Source of the DNA: Patescibacteria group bacterium | Lineage (GTDB): Bacteria > Patescibacteriota > Minisyncoccia > Phycocordibacterales > SIBU01 | Direction of reading: 5' to 3' | Length of the DNA: 64,000 nucleotides | Assembly: GCA_040390045.1 (NCBI GenBank) | Contig: JAZJZC010000002.1 | Span: 37,113 to 101,112, forward strand | Notes under the pieces: generated by a model | Seen by the model: the letters and a program-made list of their open reading frames with translations, nothing else | What the model was told of the DNA's origin: nothing | The model's database searches: none | Part shown: piece by piece, positions 616-61,927 of the stretch | Layout: each line of letters starts with the position of its first letter | Numbering within the stretch: position 1 is the first letter of the stretch | Made by a program: the position numbers and the translations under genes

Positions 616-3249
616 ATGAAGAAGCTATTACTCACCCTTTCTCTCGTCGTCTCTTTAGCCTTCGCCTCAGTGGCTTTTGCCGAAACTTCAACTTCAGTTG
701 CGGCCAATCTTCAAGCGCAAATTAACACCATCCTGGCTCAAATTCAAAAACTTCAGCTCCAGCTCAATGCTCAAGCAGGAGTTTCAACTACTGTTCTTCC
801 GGTTGTTCCAACAACCTCAACTTCCGCTTCTGACGGATTTTGTTTTGCTTTTGTAAATAACTTAAGAATTGGAGATCAAAATCCCGATGTCACAAATCTC
901 TACCGTGCGCTCATCGCTGAAGGACTTTTTGACAAAGACGAAGCCTTTCAAGACGGCCGACAGGTTCTGTATTTCAGTGAACGATTAGCTTCCGCTGTTT
1001 CTGAATTTCAAGAAAAATATGCTTCTGAAGTTCTCGCTCCCGCTGGCCTAAAGCGCGGCACAGGCTACGTGGGTCCTTCGACGAGAGCGAAACTCAATGC
1101 TCTGTATCCATGTTCAAAAACTATTCCACCTGTAGAATGTCCGCTCGTCTACGGCTCTGACGGAGTAGTTCGTCACGAGTGTTCAACGAATTCTCAGTCT
1201 CCCGTCATCAATGGTGTCAGTGGCCCTCAGTCACTAACAGTAAATCAGCAAGGTACGTGGACTGTAAAAGCTTCCGATCCAAGTGGAGGAGCTCTTTCGT
1301 ACTCAGTTATTTGGGGGGACAGTACATCTGTGCCTATGGCAACAGGTGAGAATGGTTTTCCTTCGGCGAGTACATTTACGCAGACTGCAACATTTACTCA
1401 CACCTATACACAAGCAGGAAGCTTTTATCCGCAGTTCTTTGTAAGAAATAATGTTGGAACACAGGGTACGGGCTTGAGTGTGAATGTGGTTGGTGTCAAA
1501 ACCGCTTCTTCTATTACCGTTTCGCGTCCAAATGGCGGAGAAGCATGGACCAAAGGAACAACCCAAACAATCAGTTGGAACGACACTTCAAATAATCTTC
1601 CAGCTGGATGTAATCAAAACGGTCTTTACTGTATGCCTCCTGTTCCGAGATCCTATGATATAAAACTTATCCCATACTGTATTGGAACTTGTACGGCTAT
1701 ACCACACGCTCCTTATACAATTGCAAGTAATGTTTACTCAAATAGCTATTATTGGAATGTTGGGAGTATTACCTATGCGTATGCAACGCAACCAAATCCT
1801 ACTACTATTGTTCCTGACGGCGCGTACACTATTCAAGTTTGCCAAACGGGCATCTCAGTTTGTGATTCAAGTGATTCGTATTTCAAAATTATTTCTGGTG
1901 TCGCACAGCCTTCTATCACTGTTCTTAGTCCAAATGGGGGAGAGACATTTACGCAAGGAAGTCTGTTGACTGGTTCGTTTACAACATCAAATATAGCTTA
2001 CGGTACATTTTGTGAGGCAGCCATTGTTGGTAGGAAGTCAGATGGTAGCCCCGTTGATGCTACTATCGCAACTTTGAGCATGTCAGCTACAGATAAACAG
2101 GTTTATTCTGGAACAATTCCAGCTAACCTTGTGCCCCCAGGAAGTTACAGAATTAGAGTTGATTGTGGTGGTGGAGTTTTGATTGCCCAAGATCAAAGCG
2201 ACAATTCTTTTACAATAACTACACCCACTAATTCTACAACTCCTACAGCCTACCTTTCTGCTTCGAGCGGGAATAAAACAGTTTCTTCATCAGGTTCTAA
2301 CAGTACAACGGGAGTTCTGACCGTAAATGTTGGTGATGTTGTTTCATATACATGGAATACAAACGGTACTTCTGCCACATCAGGCTACACAGTTTCAGGC
2401 GGGGCTGATCCTTGTGGTTGGTATCCAGTTAGCTCTGGGCCAAATTATCCTTGGGTTGCTCACGACACAAATGGTTCTTATTCAATGCCAAATGCTATTC
2501 AAAGTTGCCAAGCCGGACATACCTACTACATCACTTACAAAGGCACCAACAGCGCTGGATCAAATTCCGCGACGGTTGCGGTGGTGGTTAATCCAGTAGT
2601 TTCATCACAACCTACTATTACTGTAACCAGCCCAAACGGTGGAGAGACATTGACGATGGGTAAAACCTATACCGCTTCTTGGACTTCATCAGGAGTTTCA
2701 AGTGTCATGGTTGATTTAGTACGACCCGGATACGAATGCCATCTCACTAATGGGGACGTGTCTAATACTGGAAGTCTAAATTTTTCATTGACGAGCTGTG
2801 TCAACGGTCTAGCAATATCTCCAGCCACTGATTATAAGATCGTGGTGATGTATCGAAGTAATGCAGCGATTGTCACTAAGGATGAGAGTAATTCATATTT
2901 TACTATCATGACAACTTCCACCCTTAACAATCAGTCGCCGATTATCGATAGCATAACGGGCCCAACAGCGGTTGGAGTTAACCAGGCCGGTACGTGGAAT
3001 GTGAAAGCTACTGATCCAGAAAGCGGCAATCATGTTGTTTTTGGAGTAAATTGGGGAGACGGTAGCATTTCAGCTAATACATTTTTTTCTTCAACTGATC
3101 CCAAATACGCCCTTGCTACTTTGAGTCATACCTACACTCAAGCCGGAGCATACACTATTACCTTTAGTGTTGATGATGGCGACGGAGGAATTACGACACA
3201 GCAAAGAACGCTCAACGCGTGGGTAGTCGGGACGTTCACAGTCAATTAA
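616..3249 (+). CDS. large secreted cell-surface protein with a PG-binding-like domain, two PKD-like domains and repeated PNGGE-W (Kre9/KNH-like) modules
   Basis: Signal peptide MKKLLLTLSLVVSLAFASVAFA. PG_binding_1-like segment (GDQNPDVTNLYRALIAEG...VGPSTRAKLNALY). WGDS/WGDG..HTYTQAG PKD motifs near aa 230 and aa 830. Four or more repeats of SPNGGE(T/A)(F/W/L)T.G. Start chosen at the ATG at 616 inside the ORF 571-3249. Confidence 0.7.
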   Translation: MKKLLLTLSLVVSLAFASVAFAETSTSVAANLQAQINTILAQIQKLQLQLNAQAGVSTTVLPVVPTTSTSASDGFCFAFVNNLRIGDQNPDVTNLYRALIAEGLFDKDEAFQDGRQVLYFSERLASAVSEFQEKYASEVLAPAGLKRGTGYVGPSTRAKLNALYPCSKTIPPVECPLVYGSDGVVRHECSTNSQSPVINGVSGPQSLTVNQQGTWTVKASDPSGGALSYSVIWGDSTSVPMATGENGFPSASTFTQTATFTHTYTQAGSFYPQFFVRNNVGTQGTGLSVNVVGVKTASSITVSRPNGGEAWTKGTTQTISWNDTSNNLPAGCNQNGLYCMPPVPRSYDIKLIPYCIGTCTAIPHAPYTIASNVYSNSYYWNVGSITYAYATQPNPTTIVPDGAYTIQVCQTGISVCDSSDSYFKIISGVAQPSITVLSPNGGETFTQGSLLTGSFTTSNIAYGTFCEAAIVGRKSDGSPVDATIATLSMSATDKQVYSGTIPANLVPPGSYRIRVDCGGGVLIAQDQSDNSFTITTPTNSTTPTAYLSASSGNKTVSSSGSNSTTGVLTVNVGDVVSYTWNTNGTSATSGYTVSGGADPCGWYPVSSGPNYPWVAHDTNGSYSMPNAIQSCQAGHTYYITYKGTNSAGSNSATVAVVVNPVVSSQPTITVTSPNGGETLTMGKTYTASWTSSGVSSVMVDLVRPGYECHLTNGDVSNTGSLNFSLTSCVNGLAISPATDYKIVVMYRSNAAIVTKDESNSYFTIMTTSTLNNQSPIIDSITGPTAVGVNQAGTWNVKATDPESGNHVVFGVNWGDGSISANTFFSSTDPKYALATLSHTYTQAGAYTITFSVDDGDGGITTQQRTLNAWVVGTFTVN

Positions 3250-3306: not shown

Positions 3307-3428
3307 TTAAAGCTAACAGCCATCAGCTCTAAGCTGTCAGCTTCTCTAGCTTTGCGTTTGCGTTTTTTTTCTCTTATGCTAGTATATGAATCTCGCGTCA
3401 CGCGCTTCTTTTCAGAACTTGCGATTTT

Positions 3429-3520
3429 GGCGAACTTCTTTGTTGCTTCGCTCGTTTGCTCCCGCAATGTATATGAATACATTTTGGTCGCAAGCCGAGC
3501 TCGCGCTTCGAATTTCATCC
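3429..3520 (-). repeat. copy A of a ~90-nt conserved element (inverted relative to copies B and C), 123 nt upstream of tuf
   Basis: Reverse complement aligns with 29978-30070 and 44209-44290: ggatg.a.ttcga.gcgc...aaaatgtattcatatacattgc.ggagcaaa.cg.gaagcaac.a.gaag. Contains the palindrome atgtat-tcat-atacat. Confidence 0.6.
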
Positions 3521-3642
3521 AAACTCACAATTTCTGACGAGCGATTACCATTATTATAATTTATTAGTTTAATTTTATTGATAGTTATTTAAATTAAGCA
3601 AACTTCTCGTGCGCTTACTTTAGATAAGTATCACACACACAT

Positions 3643-4833
3643 ATGGCAGAATTTAATCGAAGCAAGCCGCACGTAAACGTTGGTACTATTGGCCACGTTG
3701 ACCACGGCAAGACCACTTTGACAGCCGCGATTTTGAACTCCCTTCATCTCGCCGGAAACATCGTCAAGTTGAAAAAAGTTGACGAAATTGACTCAGCTCC
3801 TGAAGAAAAGGCTCGCGGAATTACTATTGCCCTTTCTCACAACGAATACGAGACAGCAAATAGACACTACGCGCACATCGACGCTCCAGGTCACGCTGAC
3901 TACATCAAGAACATGATCACCGGTGCCGCTCAAATGGACGGTGCTATTCTCGTGGTTGCTGCAACTGATGGAGTTATGCCTCAGACTCGCGAACACGTGT
4001 TGCTCGCAAAGCAAGTCGGAGTGCCAAAAATTATCATTTTCCTCAATAAGGTAGACATGGTAGAAGACAAGGATCTTGTTGATTTGGTTGAAGAAGAAGT
4101 TCGAGAACTTTTGACCAAGCAAGGTTTTGATGGAAAAGGAGCTCCTGTTATTCGCGGATCAGCCTTGAAGGCTCTTGAGGCCACTGATGTTAACAACGAA
4201 TGGGTCAAGAAAATTCTTGAATTGACCGCAGCTCTTGATACCTACATTCCAGTTCCAGTTCGCGATACCGACAAGCCATTCCTTATGCCAATCGAAGACA
4301 TTTTCTCAATCGAAGGCCGAGGAACTGTAGTTACCGGAAGAATCGAACGAGGAATTATCAAAGTCGGTGAAGAAGTTGAAATTGTTGGTATCAAACCAAC
4401 AGCTAAGACGACTGTTACCGGTATTGAAATGTTCAACAAATCTCTCTCAGAAGGTATGGCCGGAGATAACGCCGGAATTCTTCTTCGAGGAACCAAGAAA
4501 GAAGATGTGCACCGAGGGCAGGTTTTGGCCAAGTCTGGTTCAGTAACCCCTCACACCGATTTCGAAGCTGAAATTTACGTTTTGAAGAAAGAAGAAGGTG
4601 GACGACACACACCATTTTTCTCTGGATACAAGCCACAATTTTACATTCGAACTACTGACGTTACTGGAGATGTGACTCTTCCTGATAAAGTAGAAATGGT
4701 TATGCCAGGAGATACCATTACCTTCAAAGTTAAATTGGTAGCCCCAGTTGCCCTAGAAGAGAAGACACGTTTTGCCATCCGAGAAGGAGGTAAGACTGTC
4801 GGAGCCGGAGTGGTCACGAAGATTGTCGCGTAA
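3643..4833 (+). CDS. tuf: elongation factor Tu
   Basis: [26 protein letters not shown] motifs. 396 aa. Confidence 0.97.
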
Positions 4834-4908
4834 AAGAGAAGGGTATAGGGTTGAGGGTCTAGACCGAATTCGGAAAACTAAACCCTAAAACCTAAACCCT
4901 AAAACCTA
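4834..4908 (+). repeat. intergenic hairpin element with agggtatagggttgaggg / aaaccctaaaacctaaaccct arms and a conserved aattcggaaaact loop
   Basis: Near-identical elements recur at 8588-8660 and 11664-11740. The arms are imperfectly complementary (CCCTAAA-like repeats). Confidence 0.6.
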
Positions 4909-4913
4909 TTCAA

Positions 4914-5318
4914 ATGCCAACCAAACCTACAACAGAAAAAACCGTAACTAAGCCAAAGGCCGTTTCGAAATCCCGCGCCAAGGCTTCTTCCACCACTCCA
5001 AAAAAGGATGTTGTGCAGAAACTTCGCATTCGAGTTCGAGCCTATGAACATAAAATTCTTGACGCTTCAGTCAAGCAGATTATTGACACCGCGCTCCGAT
5101 TCGATGCTTCAATCTTGGGTCCGATTCCGCTTCCAACCGAAATTAAAAAATACACGGTCAATCGCTCCGCTTTCGTCTACAAAAACGCACGAGAACAATT
5201 TGAGATGCGAGTGCACAAGCGCTTGATCGATATCGTCAACCCAAACGCAAAAATTATTGAATCTCTCACCAATCTTTCTCTGCCAAGTGGCGTAAATATT
5301 GATGTGAAGATGATCTAA
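4914..5318 (+). CDS. rpsJ: 30S ribosomal protein S10 with a Lys-rich N-terminal extension
   Basis: [26 protein letters not shown]...GPIPLPT...HKRLIDIV matches S10. Confidence 0.9.
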
Positions 5319-6626: not shown

Positions 6627-6816
6627 GCTGATTCTCCCACGCGTTGATTTTCAGAGTCTATCCACCCGGGTAGACTTTTTCTTTGACTTTTTTCACGGGG
6701 TTTGCTACTCTTCTTCAACTGTTATCCCAGTAGCAGAAATCAGAATTTCGCTACGGGACATGCCTACGGATGTTATTCAGGCACAGGAACCAACAGCCTT
6801 GAGCTGTGTTCATAAA

Positions 6817-7434
6817 ATGAAATTTATACTCGGAGCAAAATTACATATGGCCCAGGTTTGGGACGAGAATGGTCAGGTACATCCTGTTACCGTTGTTGCC
6901 GTTGGTTCAAACGTGGTGACCGCAGTTAAGACCAAGGAGAAGGATGGCTATGTCGCGTTGCAGGTTGGTATTGGCGAGAAAAATCCAAAAAATATCAACA
7001 AGGCAGAAAAAGGTCATCTTAAGGAACTTGGAAATTTTTCAACCCTCAAAGAATTTCGACTTGATACGGTAGGAGAAGCAAAGGTTGGAGATAAAATTGA
7101 AGCTACGATTTTTAAAGCCGGAGACGCCGTAGTCATTTCAGCAATTTCAAAAGGAAAAGGTTTCCAAGGAGGTGTTAAGCGACACGGTTTCCACGGAGGC
7201 CGCCGAACTCACGGTCAAAAACACTCTGAACGAGAACCAGGAGGCATCGGAGGTGGAGGACGAGCCGGAGGCCGCGTGGCGAAAGGAATTCGTATGGCCG
7301 GGCGCATGGGTAGCGATCGAGTTACCATCAAGGGTTTGAAGATTGTTCAGGTTGATCCAGCCAATAGTTTTATTTTAGTTGGCGGACCAATTCCGGGACA
7401 TCGAGGGACGATCGTAGAGATACGAGAAAGTTAA
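6817..7434 (+). CDS. rplC: 50S ribosomal protein L3
   Basis: MKFILGAKLHMAQVWDENGQVHPVTVV...GKGFQGGVKRHGF. Internal start at 6817 of ORF 6532-7434. Confidence 0.9.
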   Translation: MKFILGAKLHMAQVWDENGQVHPVTVVAVGSNVVTAVKTKEKDGYVALQVGIGEKNPKNINKAEKGHLKELGNFSTLKEFRLDTVGEAKVGDKIEATIFKAGDAVVISAISKGKGFQGGVKRHGFHGGRRTHGQKHSEREPGGIGGGGRAGGRVAKGIRMAGRMGSDRVTIKGLKIVQVDPANSFILVGGPIPGHRGTIVEIRES

Positions 7435-46975: not shown

Positions 46976-47377
46976 TGGTGGAGATGGGGAGAATTGAACT
47001 CCCGTGCACATGATTGCTCTTTTTGGATCTACATTGTTTAGTCAATTTTTATCCTTGCGGATTTTAAACTCTGAAATTTTAAAATTAACAAAATGTTTCA
47101 GTGTCGATTCTCTTTGGTTAAAGCGTGTTACGAGAAGGGAACACACTCGATTCCGAGGTATGAACGCTTATGTGTGCCTATCGGACGTTGGCACAATAAT
47201 CGTCGCTTAGGCTAATGCGTAAGCGAAAGCAAAGTCTCTACCCGCAAAATACGGAGAAAGTTGTTTTGCTTTTGAAAGTAAGTTTTTTGCACTTAACTTT
47301 TCCAGCAGTTTAAGGAATTACTGGAGTTCCACAATGCGCATAAAGATGCTGGTCACATGTCTAGGCCGGTCATCCCC
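46976..47377 (-). ncRNA. ssrA: tmRNA (ssrA)
   Basis: Minus strand begins GGGGAUG and ends GGGAGUUCAAUUCUCCC-CAUCUCC-ACCA: T-arm plus acceptor with the G3:U70 pair and encoded CCA. Candidate tag frame ...GRDFAFAYALA-stop. Lies 46 nt downstream of smpB on the same strand. Confidence 0.8.
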
Positions 47378-56048: not shown

Positions 56049-56185
56049 GGAGAGGTGTCAGAGTGTTGAATTGCGAAGGCTTGGAGCAATTCAAGGCCGG
56101 AGTCCGACGGGACGAGGCGGGGTCGCGAGATTCGCCAGTAGGCGAATACTTGTGACCTAATGTGCAGCTTTTAAAGCTGCAACGG
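56049..56185 (+). pseudogene. tRNA-Ser-derived 5'-half element carrying a ~90-nt insert in the D-loop (E1)
   Basis: ggagaggtgtcagag-[56064-56153 insert]-gacctaatgtgcagc-ttttaaa-gctgc matches the first 45 nt of the adjacent tRNA-Ser but has no variable or T arm. Confidence 0.5.
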
Positions 56186-56227: not shown

Positions 56228-56317
<90 letters not shown>

Positions 56318-56367
56318 AATGAACCGCAAGAAAGTCTAAATGACTTTCGCGCGGCTCATCATTGCGT

Positions 56368-56605
56368 GGAGAGGGAGGGATTCGAAAGACGGAATCCGCC
56401 TTCGGCGGATGAGTCGGGGTCGCGAGTACTTAGGCTTTTGTTGGTCCGCCGCGGCGGACAACAAAAGACTTAGTAACTTGTGACCGAATCTCGATTCGAA
56501 CAGCGGAGCGAAATTTTTACTAAAAAATTTCGCGAGCTGGTGCCCAGACCAAAATTTTCGACGGAAAATTTTGAGTCGCGGGAGAAACTCCCTCCCTCTC
56601 CGCCA
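56368..56605. other. structured tRNA-Ser-derived element E3, bounded by ggagagg ... cctctcc-g-cca
   Basis: Termini equal the tRNA-Ser acceptor strands. Contains the UUCG hairpin ccgccttcggcgg, a 16-bp hairpin, and the module cggggtcgcgag..acttgtgacc shared with E1. Strand undetermined. Confidence 0.5.
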
Positions 56606-56668
56606 GATTACCAAGTTTGAACCGAAGTAGAATAAGGGTTTTGTGGCCAATTTAATAAAAACAAATTT

Positions 56669-57151
56669 ATGAAGAAAAATATCGCACTCATAATACTCAT
56701 TGTTCTCGTCCTGGTCTTGGCCTGGCTCGTGTTCTCGCCTAATTCTCCTGCAACTTCGGTTAATCAACCCCACTACGATACAGCGCTCTCTGCATCGGGC
56801 AATATCACTTGTACCTACCCTCGAGTCTTACACGCAAGTTACCAGAGCGGTGAAATAACACACGAGTTACCTAAACCCGAAACAAACCCGATCATAATGA
56901 CTTTTAGCGGGATTGATTCGGAGACACCAAAAGTACAATTTATCGATTCTACTCAAACAATCTCTGAGGTTCCTATTATGAAAGTTGTAGATACAAATGA
57001 AAAGTTGATGTTTGTCGAGGGTGATGGTGATCCTTATTTGACCGTGCATACAATATACAAAAATGTAGGAATTGGAACTTATGAAAAATCAATGTCACTT
57101 TTGGGTATCCCAGTAGGAACAATTGCTATGGGTAGCTGTGTGGATTATTGA
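56669..57151 (+). CDS. hypothetical N-terminally anchored secreted protein
   Basis: 160 aa with a signal/anchor segment. Confidence 0.45.
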   Translation: MKKNIALIILIVLVLVLAWLVFSPNSPATSVNQPHYDTALSASGNITCTYPRVLHASYQSGEITHELPKPETNPIIMTFSGIDSETPKVQFIDSTQTISEVPIMKVVDTNEKLMFVEGDGDPYLTVHTIYKNVGIGTYEKSMSLLGIPVGTIAMGSCVDY

Positions 57152-57159
57152 TGGTGCAT

Positions 57160-57483
57160 ATGAAAAAAGCTATTAAATGGATCGTAGGAATAGTACTTAT
57201 ACTCTGGATATTTTCTGCCGCCCCTTCGTTTCTGGCTGGCGTTTTCTGGTCAGAAAGTAATGCACCTTGGGAGAAGGTCGATGCCTTCTACTATCCAGAT
57301 GCAAACAACTTATCCGAATGGGAAAGTCAGATAGATGTGGGTTCGGTCCAAGCTTGCCGTGATTGGGTTGAAGATTCAGCTGCCGCAAAGGGTGACCCAA
57401 ATCTAGAACGAGGTGATTATGAATGTGGAGTTAGTTGCAAAAGCAAAGATGGTTTCAATGTATGTCGTCTAACTGTTGAATAA
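57160..57483 (+). CDS. hypothetical small anchored Cys-containing protein
   Basis: Start at MKKAIKW within ORF 57148-57483. TM anchor. 4 Cys in the C-terminal part. Confidence 0.4.
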   Translation: MKKAIKWIVGIVLILWIFSAAPSFLAGVFWSESNAPWEKVDAFYYPDANNLSEWESQIDVGSVQACRDWVEDSAAAKGDPNLERGDYECGVSCKSKDGFNVCRLTVE

Positions 57484-57485
57484 AT

Positions 57486-57992
57486 ATGGACAAGAAAAAT
57501 ATCATAATTATCGTGTTGATAATCGCACTCGGAGCGACGGTTTATTTTACCTCTCAAAAAAATCAAGCTTCCCAACTAGAAAATTCTGGAACAAATTCAA
57601 TTTTGCCAAGCCAGGAACTAAGAGCGGCTTACACAGAATCTCTACAGCATTCTGCTATGGTAGATATCGCGGAACTTTCTTGTTTCCCGACAAGTCGGTT
57701 TGATTGTGGTGGGGGGAGTTGTACAGCTTCCGCTCCAGCAACTTATTATTTCGTAGATTATGGAACAGAGAGTGCAACCTATTTTAGGTGCGATGCCAAA
57801 GGATGCGATCCATACCCAGTTGAAGTAACCACTTCTGGAGAATTTACCCAATTTACTCCATCGCAAGGTCAAGCAATGATGTTCAAGGTCGCCACCGGAG
57901 ATATTTGGGACAACAAAGGAGAATTTATTGATATTGCAACACTCGGAACTGGAGCAATAGTATCTTCGGGTAAATGCGAATTCACAAAATAA
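57486..57992 (+). CDS. hypothetical anchored Cys-rich secreted protein
   Basis: 168 aa. TM anchor. CFPTSRFDCGGGSC..., CDAKGCD. Confidence 0.45.
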   Translation: MDKKNIIIIVLIIALGATVYFTSQKNQASQLENSGTNSILPSQELRAAYTESLQHSAMVDIAELSCFPTSRFDCGGGSCTASAPATYYFVDYGTESATYFRCDAKGCDPYPVEVTTSGEFTQFTPSQGQAMMFKVATGDIWDNKGEFIDIATLGTGAIVSSGKCEFTK

Positions 57993-57996
57993 ATTT

Positions 57997-58791
57997 ATGG
58001 TAAAGAGAAAACAACCCGAACCAATAGAAGCAAATCTGTCATATCAACAAATGGAGGCAGCTATTCCTAAAATTGACAGGAGGATAGCCGATCTTGAAAA
58101 TTTCGATGTCAATTCCATTACTGACCGAAGCGATGCAAGAATTAATGCACTCGAGAAATCATTAGATGCACTACTGGTTTCCGTTTTTGGGGCGGGAACA
58201 GTGGAATACGATCGTTACCATTGGCAAGTTACACGTTTGGATATTGCTTCAATGAACATGATGCATCGAACCCCAATTCATGAAATTCACGAAGGGTTAC
58301 GTCGCGGTATTGCTACCGCTAAAGCTCATTTGGAAGTAATCAAAAAAGGATTTCTTGAAGAACTTGGAGATGCGGGACTTAATTCTGCGGGAAAAACTCT
58401 AAAAGCATATGAAGGACTTGAACTACATCCCGAAATTGAGCGTGCGGTCGGTAATCTATACAGAGATGGTCACTATGCAAATGCTGTGGAGGATGCAACC
58501 AAAGCGCTCAACGCTTTGGTACGAATGCGTAGCGGCATTGAAGACAAAGATGGTAGTACGCTGATGGAGACGGTTTTTAGTCCAAAAAATCCACTTCTGA
58601 AATTTAACAAACTCGTTGATGTTTCTGATATAGATGAGCAAAGGGGATTTATGATGATGTTTGCTGGAGCTGTAGCTGGATTGCGCAATCCGCGCGCTCA
58701 TAAGATTATCAAGGATGACCCAGAGATGGCGTTGGAATTTATTGCCTTTGTCAGTCTTCTGGCAAAACTAGTGGATAAAAGCTCAAAATAA
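57997..58791 (+). CDS. HEPN-superfamily protein, Ymh (TIGR02391)-like C-terminal domain, predicted RNase/defense
   Basis: C-terminal MMMFAGAVAGLRNPRAHKIIKDDPEMALEFIAFVSLLAKLV carries an Rx4H motif (RNPRAH) in a helical context typical of the Hypoth_Ymh HEPN family. Confidence 0.55.
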   Translation: MVKRKQPEPIEANLSYQQMEAAIPKIDRRIADLENFDVNSITDRSDARINALEKSLDALLVSVFGAGTVEYDRYHWQVTRLDIASMNMMHRTPIHEIHEGLRRGIATAKAHLEVIKKGFLEELGDAGLNSAGKTLKAYEGLELHPEIERAVGNLYRDGHYANAVEDATKALNALVRMRSGIEDKDGSTLMETVFSPKNPLLKFNKLVDVSDIDEQRGFMMMFAGAVAGLRNPRAHKIIKDDPEMALEFIAFVSLLAKLVDKSSK

Positions 58792-58810
58792 TTCAGCTAC
58801 TTTTTAAGTC

Positions 58811-59512
58811 ATGAAGGATCTAAAAAATATCTTAAAGGGGAAAATAATAGAGATATTGATAATAATTGTTGTTTTACTTTTTATTCTATATTTGGTATGT
58901 CCGACACTCAGGGATTATATTTTTGAGCAAAAAATTGAAGCGAACTTTGTACTCGGATTCTTAACAGTCATTACCTTGATGGTCAGTATTTGGCAGAATA
59001 CAAAAGATAGGAAGCTAACCTACAACATAAATGTTTGGGAATCGGTAAGAAATAATGGCTTAGCAATAATAAGCAAACTGATCGCAATTAAGCAAAAAAG
59101 TGACATTATCGTCAAAACTCTAAAAAGCCATCAGGATGCCATAAAGAAAAGACAGGTATTCATGGATTCTAACGATACCTTGTCAAAGAGAGATATTGAC
59201 GATGGATTTCAGATAGTTGCTGCTTATGCGGATACATATTTTAGAGATGAATGTGAGAAGTGGAATGAAATGTTAAACAAGTTGAGTGCTATGGCAACAG
59301 ATAATATAAACGTAATCAAGAATTACGAGATAAATTTGCAGTTAATTATGAGTGGAACTGATTTTAGAAATTCAACTCTAGACAAACTAGATGAAATTGT
59401 TGCTAACGCAGAGAAAGCAGACAAAGAAATTGCTCAGATCACTGAGGAGATGAGAAATAAAATTATTGGAAAGACAAATAGTATTAGCGATAAAATCAAG
59501 AATAATTTATAG
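58811..59512 (+). CDS. AT-rich hypothetical membrane protein (2 TM) with a long helical C-terminus, possible partner of the HEPN gene
   Basis: 233 aa. GC visibly lower than the flanks. Confidence 0.45.
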   Translation: MKDLKNILKGKIIEILIIIVVLLFILYLVCPTLRDYIFEQKIEANFVLGFLTVITLMVSIWQNTKDRKLTYNINVWESVRNNGLAIISKLIAIKQKSDIIVKTLKSHQDAIKKRQVFMDSNDTLSKRDIDDGFQIVAAYADTYFRDECEKWNEMLNKLSAMATDNINVIKNYEINLQLIMSGTDFRNSTLDKLDEIVANAEKADKEIAQITEEMRNKIIGKTNSISDKIKNNL

Positions 59513-59644
59513 CACAGAGATTAAATTATTGGATAATCCACGATGTTTTGCCCCTTATCCGACTTCGGCTTGGGCACCTCGAACCAGTCTGGATGGACTT
59601 TGTAGAAGCTCTGATTTCTGTATCCTTTTTCGGACAATCAACTC

Positions 59645-59848
59645 CTATCTTTTATACTCCAAAATATCCCCCGGTTGACAATCAAGCGCTTTGCAAACAG
59701 CCTCTAGTGTCGATAGCCGAATCGCTTTGGCTTTTCCATTTTTCAAAACGGAAATGTTGGCCATCGTGATGCCAACTTTCTCGGCGAGTTCGGTGACGCT
59801 CATTTTTCGCTTGGCCAAATAAACGTCTATGTTGATAATGATCGCCAT
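59645..59848 (-). CDS. XRE-family helix-turn-helix transcriptional regulator
   Basis: MSVTELAEKVGITMANISVLKNGKAKAIRLSTLEAVCKALDCQPGDIL. Confidence 0.75.
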   Translation of the reverse strand: MAIIINIDVYLAKRKMSVTELAEKVGITMANISVLKNGKAKAIRLSTLEAVCKALDCQPGDILEYKR

Positions 59849-59852
59849 GGTT

Positions 59853-60335
59853 TTAAACAGTTAAGTCGTTTTCGGATTTTATGTCCACTGCTTTTTGCAA
59901 AATTCGTTCAAACATTGCGGCCACACTGGCGCCTAGGCCAGAGATAGCAATTATTAAAAGACCCATGAAAACACCACCCGCAATGTCATCCTTACCGCGC
60001 TGAAATACAAATAGATAGGCCTCTGCTCCAAGCGCAAAAGCAACGAGGGTTATTGCGCAGTATCTTATAATTTGTAAAGCCCTCACGGAATTTATTGAGA
60101 AGATTTTATTTTTTCCAATATATCCGAGCAACTTGAACGCTTGGTAGAGTGCTACAAAAAACGCGATGGACGCTGTATACGCACACGCTAAGAATGGGTC
60201 GTTGAAATATATTTGAAAGAGGGTAGCGTTTACATTTCTGCCCTCGATGTGAGGTTCCCAAAGCATAAAGGCAAGAGCGCCGAGGCCGATGAGCACAATA
60301 ACCACCTGAAGCAATATTGTTGAACTTTTTTTCAT
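59853..60335 (-). CDS. DUF2975-like membrane protein, typically paired with a small XRE HTH regulator
   Basis: 4 TM helices. 5 nt upstream of the HTH gene on the same strand. Confidence 0.5.
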   Translation of the reverse strand: MKKSSTILLQVVIVLIGLGALAFMLWEPHIEGRNVNATLFQIYFNDPFLACAYTASIAFFVALYQAFKLLGYIGKNKIFSINSVRALQIIRYCAITLVAFALGAEAYLFVFQRGKDDIAGGVFMGLLIIAISGLGASVAAMFERILQKAVDIKSENDLTV

Positions 60336-61799: not shown

Positions 61800-61886
61800 G
61801 GAGAGATGGATGAGTGGTTTAAATCAACGGTTTACTAAACCGTCGACCTTTAATTAGGTCCGCGAGTTCGAATCTCGCTCTCTCCG
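61800..61886 (+). tRNA. tRNA-Ser-like (long variable arm) with an unusual ACU anticodon
   Basis: Acceptor ggagaga/tctctcc, anticodon arm acggt-ttactaa-accgt, variable arm gacc-tttaatta-ggtc, T arm gcgag-ttcgaat-ctcgc, discriminator G. Confidence 0.65.
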
Positions 61887-61927
61887 CATTTGAAAATCCG
61901 CCCTTTTGGGGCGTGATTTTCTTATGC

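Follow-up and report, generated by a model that had tools for sequence, protein, structure and literature searches.

A solo Ymh-family HEPN gene and an AT-rich orphan membrane gene in probable chance tandem in a Patescibacteria genome

In a 64,000-nucleotide stretch of the genome of a Patescibacteria group bacterium (contig JAZJZC010000002.1; the whole stretch is called the window below and is numbered from its first letter), a gene for a predicted RNase of the Ymh family of HEPN proteins (57997..58791, + strand) is followed on the same strand by a gene for an orphan protein with two transmembrane (TM) helices (58811..59512, + strand). A sequence-only reading had proposed the two as a candidate defence or abortive-infection (Abi) pair, separated by 20 nt and acquired horizontally. 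The order and the positions of the genes stand and the gap is 19 nt; comparison with other genomes leads us to a different account. We find it probable that these are two independent, horizontally mobile accessory genes standing in chance tandem, and not a dedicated two-gene system.

Occurrence of the two genes

We compared 37 HEPN loci, out of more than 1360 database homologues of the HEPN protein, and about 16 contexts of the membrane gene (loci from other genomes carry L numbers). Relatives of the membrane gene were found by tblastn in none of the 37 HEPN loci from other genomes, which include Patescibacteria and Saccharibacteria with an HEPN identity of 86-91%, and none of the about 15 other membrane-gene contexts contains a HEPN gene. 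Among the loci examined, the pairing is therefore seen only in this genome. Nearly every open reading frame (ORF) flanking the HEPN genes of the 37 loci is a singleton in all-versus-all clustering, and the tightly coupled downstream genes present behind 13 HEPN genes, including that of the window, are mutually unrelated. A general pattern in which an HEPN gene is joined by a membrane partner was considered and rejected, since only 3 of the 12 tight downstream neighbours outside the window have TM segments, and these too are unrelated to one another.

These observations do not support a dedicated two-gene system, and the two-gene defence or Abi pair of the sequence-only reading falls with them. 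Such a system, for example a sensor with its effector or a toxin with its partner in the manner of toxin-antitoxin modules, would be in keeping with the shared strand, with the short gap in which no terminator is predicted and with the defence-type associations of both genes; partner genes next to HEPN genes are frequent, and HEPN proteins with a membrane link are also on record (PMC3710099). Against this stand, besides the missing co-occurrence even in Patescibacteria whose HEPN proteins are closely related, the many unrelated neighbours of each gene, which at times stands alone, and a difference of 10 points in GC content between the two. As a conserved system the pair is already largely refuted, and a dedicated system of any kind seems to us improbable.

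Base composition separates the two genes further. The membrane gene has 31.8% GC against a window mean of 42.8% (standard deviation 3.4) and is the most AT-rich 702-nt stretch in the 64 kb, with no other so low, which agrees with its earlier description as strongly AT-rich. The HEPN gene, in contrast, has 41.9% GC and is ordinary for the genome. Consequently, the anomaly is limited to the membrane gene and cannot serve as a sign of joint acquisition, the use to which the sequence-only reading had put it. The membrane gene is also more AT-rich than its flanks in 15/15 loci checked, and its family is intrinsically AT-rich.

The window HEPN protein shares 71-76% identity with homologues from Acidobacteriota, 73% with those from Dormiibacterota and 72% with those from Thermodesulfobacteriota, whereas for RecG the window and a related Patescibacteria genome share only about 50-73%. 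Because identity across phyla is high compared with that of RecG within Patescibacteria, the sequences argue for recent horizontal spread of the HEPN gene, across phyla at 70-90% identity, under strong constraint. Similarly, the membrane protein is 81-86% identical between related genomes whose RecG shows about 50-73%. What recurs on plasmids and phages is the HEPN domain alone, at less than 60% identity.

The HEPN protein

The HEPN gene is a solo gene with an ORF of 264 residues. The Pfam profile PF09509 (Hypoth_Ymh) matches residues 142-258 (58420..58770, + strand) with E=7.2e-31 and 107 bits against a cut-off of 25, and TIGR02391 matches the protein with E=2.4e-24 and 85.8 bits against a cut-off of 39.45. 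This Ymh HEPN domain is the best-conserved region in the alignment of the family and holds the hexapeptide RNPRAH (58684..58701, + strand), which we read as the predicted catalytic Rx4H motif, R230...H235. The motif is kept in 29 of 30 aligned homologues of 35-91% identity, drawn from the 37 loci and ranging from Patescibacteria to Proteobacteria, with one archaeon; the sole exception (L034) has RNPGAR and has lost the histidine. Both the assignment to Hypoth_Ymh and the motif had been proposed from the sequence alone, to be given up if no significant profile match or no conservation of the motif were seen. The profile matches and the conserved motif bear the proposal out, and we regard the HEPN/Ymh assignment as solid.

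The Ymh half is also matched by models from collections of defence and phage proteins. In PADLOC, Aga_HEPN matches residues 139-247 (E=1.5e-14) and PD-Lambda-3_B residues 126-263 (E=4.4e-14), and in PHROGs the same half matches phrog_6297, a phage family of comparable length. Together with the recurrence of both genes beside restriction-modification (R-M) and other defence genes elsewhere, the PADLOC matches uphold the defence flavour that the region had been given. A PDB sequence search returned no match for the protein, and its AlphaFold2 model is all helical, with a predicted local distance difference test score (pLDDT) of 86.9.

The N-terminal helical domain comprises residues 1 to ~135 (57997..58401, + strand), and its ~130 residues have no Pfam match. 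It resembles the PADLOC model PDC-S35: in a test set of the window protein and 24 diverse homologues, the N-terminus matched model positions ~6-101 of 264 in 25/25 proteins, with a best E of 7.4e-9, and no other PADLOC model was matched by this domain in any of the 25. We infer that the PDC-S35-like domain is a sensor or regulatory module.

The HEPN protein would then be a latent, self-contained RNase, in which a PDC-S35-like N-terminal domain is fused to a Ymh domain whose Rx4H site is intact. To judge from other HEPN proteins, the active form is most likely a dimer with a composite RNase site, and upon triggering it would cleave RNA and act as a single-gene Abi or second-line module, a kind of module that is often found behind R-M operons. 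In this scheme the RNase activity, the dimerisation and the trigger are carried over from the HEPN literature, and the family assignment, the motif conservation and the gene contexts come from the present analysis. Since there is no conserved neighbour to serve as antitoxin, the nuclease is most plausibly controlled within the molecule, via the N-terminal domain.

The membrane protein and its family

The downstream gene encodes 233 residues and belongs to a small unannotated family. Hydropathy, flanking charge and family alignments place its two TM helices at residues ~12-30 and ~44-62 (58844..58996, + strand), joined by a short loop with a conserved IDPNF, and the charges flanking both hydrophobic segments favour an N-in/C-in arrangement with cytoplasmic termini. 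The AlphaFold2 model, built from a 27-sequence alignment, is confident (pLDDT 88.7) and has an all-helical C-terminal domain of ~170 residues, in which the second TM helix (TM2) runs on into a ~68-residue helix that is followed by more long helices. The two TM helices of the sequence-only reading are thus retained, whereas the long coiled C-terminus described there has in the model the look of an elongated helical bundle and not of a simple coiled coil. The positions conserved in the family, namely IDPNF ahead of TM2, a basic stretch that follows TM2, and aromatic residues and asparagine at scattered sites (such as Y27, F144, W151, N152 and Y172), give no hint of catalysis.

The window protein is identical to a hypothetical protein from a Patescibacteria metagenome-assembled genome and has 15 close homologues, and the whole family amounts to 40 clusters among 1.84 billion protein representatives. 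The protein matches nothing in Pfam, NCBIfam, PADLOC or PHROGs; a PDB sequence search with the family gave coiled-coil noise only, and a fold search gave only generic helical bundles, all non-significant (E>0.07). Across these databases, no described membrane defence, Abi or exclusion family matches the protein by sequence or fold. Its relatives are absent from the viral contigs searched and from 72,556 plasmids, and a context search with a tighter alignment of the family returned 6 metagenome loci and no viral matches.

Genomic contexts

Elsewhere, the membrane gene lies 2-30 nt behind restriction genes of several unrelated kinds. It follows a GmrSD_N/HNH nuclease, ahead of which an EcoRI-type methylase and a T5orf172 protein are encoded, in L001; a 1043-residue Type ISP R-M enzyme, with a Zeta toxin after, in L003; HinfI R-M modules in L005 and L007; and BglII or MvaI/BcnI endonucleases, accompanied by a LexA-S24-methylase fusion and a DUF2188 protein, in L006 and L046. 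In L049 it comes after a methylase and a DUF6996/6997 pair with a gap of 92 nt, and it is near Eco57I in L060 and near GmrSD/NYN genes in L056. Of the more divergent members of the family, whose settings are clearly those of mobile elements, one adjoins a Rep protein, a large serine recombinase and a HigB/HigA-like pair (L053), one follows an FtsK/SpoIIIE translocase at a distance of 2 nt and has an SNF2 helicase and a large methylase encoded downstream (L054), and one is beside an rve transposase (L047). The gene stands alone in L047, L050 and L056.

The neighbours of HEPN genes are comparably mixed and comprise resolvases, integrases and transposases, GmrSD/HNH, EcoRI methylase, RhuM, DruA, Eco57I and type II/IIG R-M genes, as well as housekeeping genes. 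Two kinds of module recur with both of our genes. In L010, L014 and L040 the HEPN gene comes after a module made up of an EcoRI-type methylase and a GmrSD_N/HNH nuclease; in L001/L002 the membrane gene takes this place, and the two versions of the module are homologous, with 50-57% identity in the methylase and about 36% in the nuclease. In the same way, a small DUF2188 gene is found directly upstream of the HEPN gene (L023 4725-4997, L025 4297-4533) and directly upstream of the membrane gene (L006 3247-3489, L046 5691-5978). Because the same kinds of module end in either gene, the HEPN and the membrane gene fill equivalent operon slots; in the window they are consecutive and the R-M part is absent.

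Three further observations concern these modules. Among HEPN neighbours, the counts of DUF2188 and of the PADLOC candidate PDC-S16 coincide (2 upstream, 1 downstream), and this coincidence suggests that DUF2188 corresponds to the defence candidate PDC-S16. The fusion of a LexA DNA-binding domain, an S24 peptidase and an N6_N4 DNA methylase (L006 1566-3158, - strand; L046 3812-5677, - strand) is unusual, is paired with BglII or MvaI/BcnI endonucleases and may be an SOS-type self-cleaving controller joined to an R-M methylase. In L021, a gene directly upstream of the HEPN homologue (3335-4984) starts with a motif like that of GHKL ATPases (AELVDNSIDA, recognised by eye only); it recalls the paraMORC-Ymh association of the literature, but as separate genes.

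Since the membrane gene is usually the last one after unrelated R-M or defence genes, or lies in mobile elements, and in some loci stands alone, it most likely acts autonomously. From this context, the protein would be a membrane-acting accessory defence protein (an Abi-like effector) or a DNA-entry or exclusion factor, as suggested by its two TM helices, its cytoplasmic helical bundle, the want of any catalytic-looking motif and the operon slot that it has in common with the HEPN gene.

A broader proposal can be made only tentatively, and we would not call it likely: that the protein founds a new membrane-acting accessory defence family, for Abi or DNA-entry exclusion, in Patescibacteria and their relatives. 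Its gene would fill the last position of unrelated R-M operons interchangeably with the Ymh-HEPN RNase, would travel in its closest clade with a convergent mini-ORF, and would so define a cassette-like "terminal slot" for second-line immunity next to tRNA-Ser, in genomes with very few known defence systems.

The tRNA-Ser locus and the convergent mini-ORF

In four loci, the variable block that ends in the membrane gene starts right after a tRNA-Ser gene (L001 2853-6699, L046 2973-6693, L006 766-4195, window 56228-59512). The tRNA-Ser isoacceptors at these blocks differ (gct, gga and cga), and no integrase was seen inside the four blocks.

In the window, the tRNA-Ser(gct) gene (56228-56317) is surrounded by fragments of itself between 56049 and 56603. 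Its 5' part recurs over 35 nt with 74% identity (56049-56083) and an internal part recurs exactly over 15 nt (56157-56171); its 3' end recurs twice, once inverted and perfect over 19 nt (56368-56386) and once as an exact 15-nt direct repeat (56589-56603). These fragments look like scars of repeated integration or recombination. As att-like repeats enclosing the two genes, however, the copies of the 3' end had to be rejected, since they bound only about 290 nt next to the tRNA. A second tRNA-Ser, with the anticodon ACT, is found at 61800-61887 (ARAGORN; Rfam tRNA 56.6 bits); A34 would be unusual in a serine tRNA, and the window also has a tRNA-Ser(gct) that serves this codon box. The tRNA-Ser genes at 56228 and 61800 were likewise rejected as duplicated att sites, being different isoacceptors of about 75% identity.

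This locus gives rise to the main rival explanation for the membrane gene, according to which it is unrelated to defence and is a lineage-specific resident flanking a tRNA-Ser insertion hotspot, beside which variable cargo (R-M, HEPN) lands. L001 and the window have a common upstream backbone of tRNA-Ile, RecG and tRNA-Ser(gct), L007 has the downstream DUF2975 and HTH_26 genes of the window, and in both L001 and L007 the genes directly upstream of the membrane gene differ from those in the window. The islands of L046 and L006 also start directly after tRNA-Ser, and the copies of tRNA-Ser(gct) sequence at 56.0-56.6 kb in the window indicate recurrent recombination. Against a resident gene stand, however, the rarity and patchiness of the family, its occurrence beside three tRNA-Ser isoacceptors and in unrelated settings, among them Rep with a serine recombinase and FtsK, and its AT-richness relative to every host checked. 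The membrane protein is, moreover, better conserved than RecG between the same genomes, and its gene lies only 2-30 nt from unrelated upstream genes, which speaks for travel with the cargo. We therefore hold a resident gene to be unlikely, and keep to a mobile accessory gene.

Downstream of the membrane gene, a conserved convergent mini-ORF or coding remnant (59521..59631, - strand), whose translation ends in ...FYKVHPDWFEVPKPKSDKGQNIVDYPII before the stop, is kept in the closest clade. The block is also found at L001 ~6700-6830, L006 ~4196-4330, L007 ~2889-3000 and L046 ~6694-6830, and its conserved minus-strand peptide ends in ...IDKSIQELRAIFKVHPEWFEVPKPKSDKGKNVVDYSIN followed by a stop. With substitutions at codon positions 1:2:3 in the proportion 20:25:135, the block evolves as coding sequence, and it accompanies the membrane gene even where the genes farther downstream differ. 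It has no consistent start codon, and there are in-frame stops just upstream of it in L001 and L046. Searches for an RNA in Rfam and for a known protein domain in Pfam were both negative.

With this block, the membrane gene could alternatively serve a mobile element, in entry or surface exclusion or in element maintenance, possibly as a two-part module with the mini-ORF. The steady company of a coding-like conserved block in the closest clade would suit such a role, as would the divergent members beside Rep and the large serine recombinase (L053), after FtsK/SpoIIIE (L054) and beside the rve transposase (L047). Yet the viral contigs and the 72,556 plasmids hold no relative, R-M operons in which no mobility gene is recognisable make up most of the contexts, and the mini-ORF, besides its inconsistent start, is missing from the divergent members; we give a mobile-element function little credence.

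The remaining neighbourhood in the window is as follows. Upstream of the HEPN gene are genes for three small proteins that have hydrophobic segments at the N-terminus and match no family. On the opposite strand, downstream of the membrane gene, an HTH_26 regulator and a DUF2975 membrane protein (59645-60335, - strand) form a pair that is also present in L007 (3230-4438, - strand), with 88% and 69% identity; L007 carries two DUF2975 copies. The wider surroundings, which fit a Patescibacteria origin, comprise RecG, tRNAs, a type IV pilin, small membrane proteins and a transfer-messenger RNA gene (46976-47377, - strand) with the tag peptide AKNLLSKAKQLSPYFAGRDFAFAYALA.

Discussion

Our analysis suggests that adjacency in the window does not define a system, and it corrects what is a natural misreading of two co-directional genes. 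Several points weigh against the account of two independent mobile accessory genes, or against the functions proposed for them. The comparison covers only 37 of the more than 1360 HEPN homologues and about 16 membrane-gene contexts. With 19 nt between them on one strand, the two genes are probably co-transcribed in the window, and the sequence leaves room for a lineage-specific functional coupling. Within ~4 kb on either side of the two genes there is no R-M or other recognisable defence gene, so that the idea of a second line behind R-M cannot be taken literally here. Two membrane-gene contexts (L008 and L059) contain no defence or mobile-element genes, and the function of the membrane protein is assigned wholly through guilt by association. 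As to the HEPN protein, a fold search recovered known HEPN structures only weakly (E>1), and a literature search found no characterised Ymh protein.

The HEPN gene adds little alone, its family being already catalogued; the N-terminal domain in common with PDC-S35 nevertheless offers a handle on the regulation of solo HEPN nucleases. The comparison also exposed a small unannotated family of membrane proteins, mostly in or beside R-M operons or mobile elements and usually encoded by the last gene. Patescibacteria have tiny genomes, and restriction systems are thought to dominate their immunity. A recurrent accessory gene behind R-M systems is for this reason worth functional screening, and it is a reasonable, if unproven, candidate for a new defence gene.

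Comparison with known systems

PDC-S35, which is to our knowledge a prediction without experimental validation, is homologous to the HEPN protein over the N-terminal ~100 residues in 25/25 proteins. The likeness ends there: only N-terminal positions of the model match, the C-terminal effector part differs, and the Ymh domain does not match the model.

PD-Lambda-3 is reportedly a two-gene defence system of E. coli, from the work of Vassallo et al. in 2022. Its B protein has about the same length as the HEPN protein (270 residues) and ends in a Ymh-like domain, with an alignment over positions 125-264 of the 270 in the model, but the N-terminal ~125 residues do not align. PD-Lambda-3 was ruled out, since the flanking proteins include no A-type partner in PADLOC and the N-terminus is unaligned; nor do the top families assigned to 123 neighbours of HEPN homologues include PD-Lambda-3_A. 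An entry in a review table (PMC10952713) lists PD-Lambda-3 with a PD-(D/E)XK nuclease domain; no neighbour of this kind is present in the window or among the top matches for the neighbours of homologues.

Two other arrangements of HEPN proteins do not apply. A HEPN-MNT (type VII) toxin-antitoxin system was ruled out because no neighbouring ORF has a nucleotidyltransferase domain, and an Argonaute-linked HEPN because the Aga_HEPN match is confined to the HEPN domain and the annotated neighbourhood holds no pAgo-like ORF.

For the membrane protein, RexB, the lactococcal Sie proteins and T4 Imm come to mind, small membrane proteins of Abi or superinfection exclusion. No sequence or fold relationship to them can be detected, and the resemblance, which we note as a lead, consists in a small inner-membrane protein found in defence or mobile contexts and devoid of enzymatic motifs.

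PrrC and RloC, which are second-line suicide RNases linked to R-M, and the single-gene HEPN Abi proteins AbiD/F/J/U2/V are comparable with the HEPN protein in their logic, as latent RNases encoded by accessory genes beside restriction systems, with an N-terminal regulator and a C-terminal nuclease (PMC3710099). Sequence kinship to these goes no further than the HEPN superfamily, the N-termini of PrrC and RloC are ABC-ATPases, and the window has no R-M partner. In single-gene Abi proteins, helical N-terminal domains are common to differing effector domains (PMC3710099), a picture with which the domain structure of the window protein agrees.

The closest comparison is with the Ymh family itself, which Anantharaman et al. 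2013 (PMC3710099) describe as "solos and fusions... in operon with R-M". The N-terminus of the window protein is PDC-S35-like and not recognisably among the fusions listed there (paraMORC, AbiJ-NTD1, AbiTii), and no R-M system is nearby. However, the strong profile match, the Rx4H motif, the solo architecture, the frequent placement of relatives in or beside R-M operons and the wide horizontal spread are all those of the family (PMC3710099), and the HEPN gene is a further member of this catalogued and computationally well-described group.

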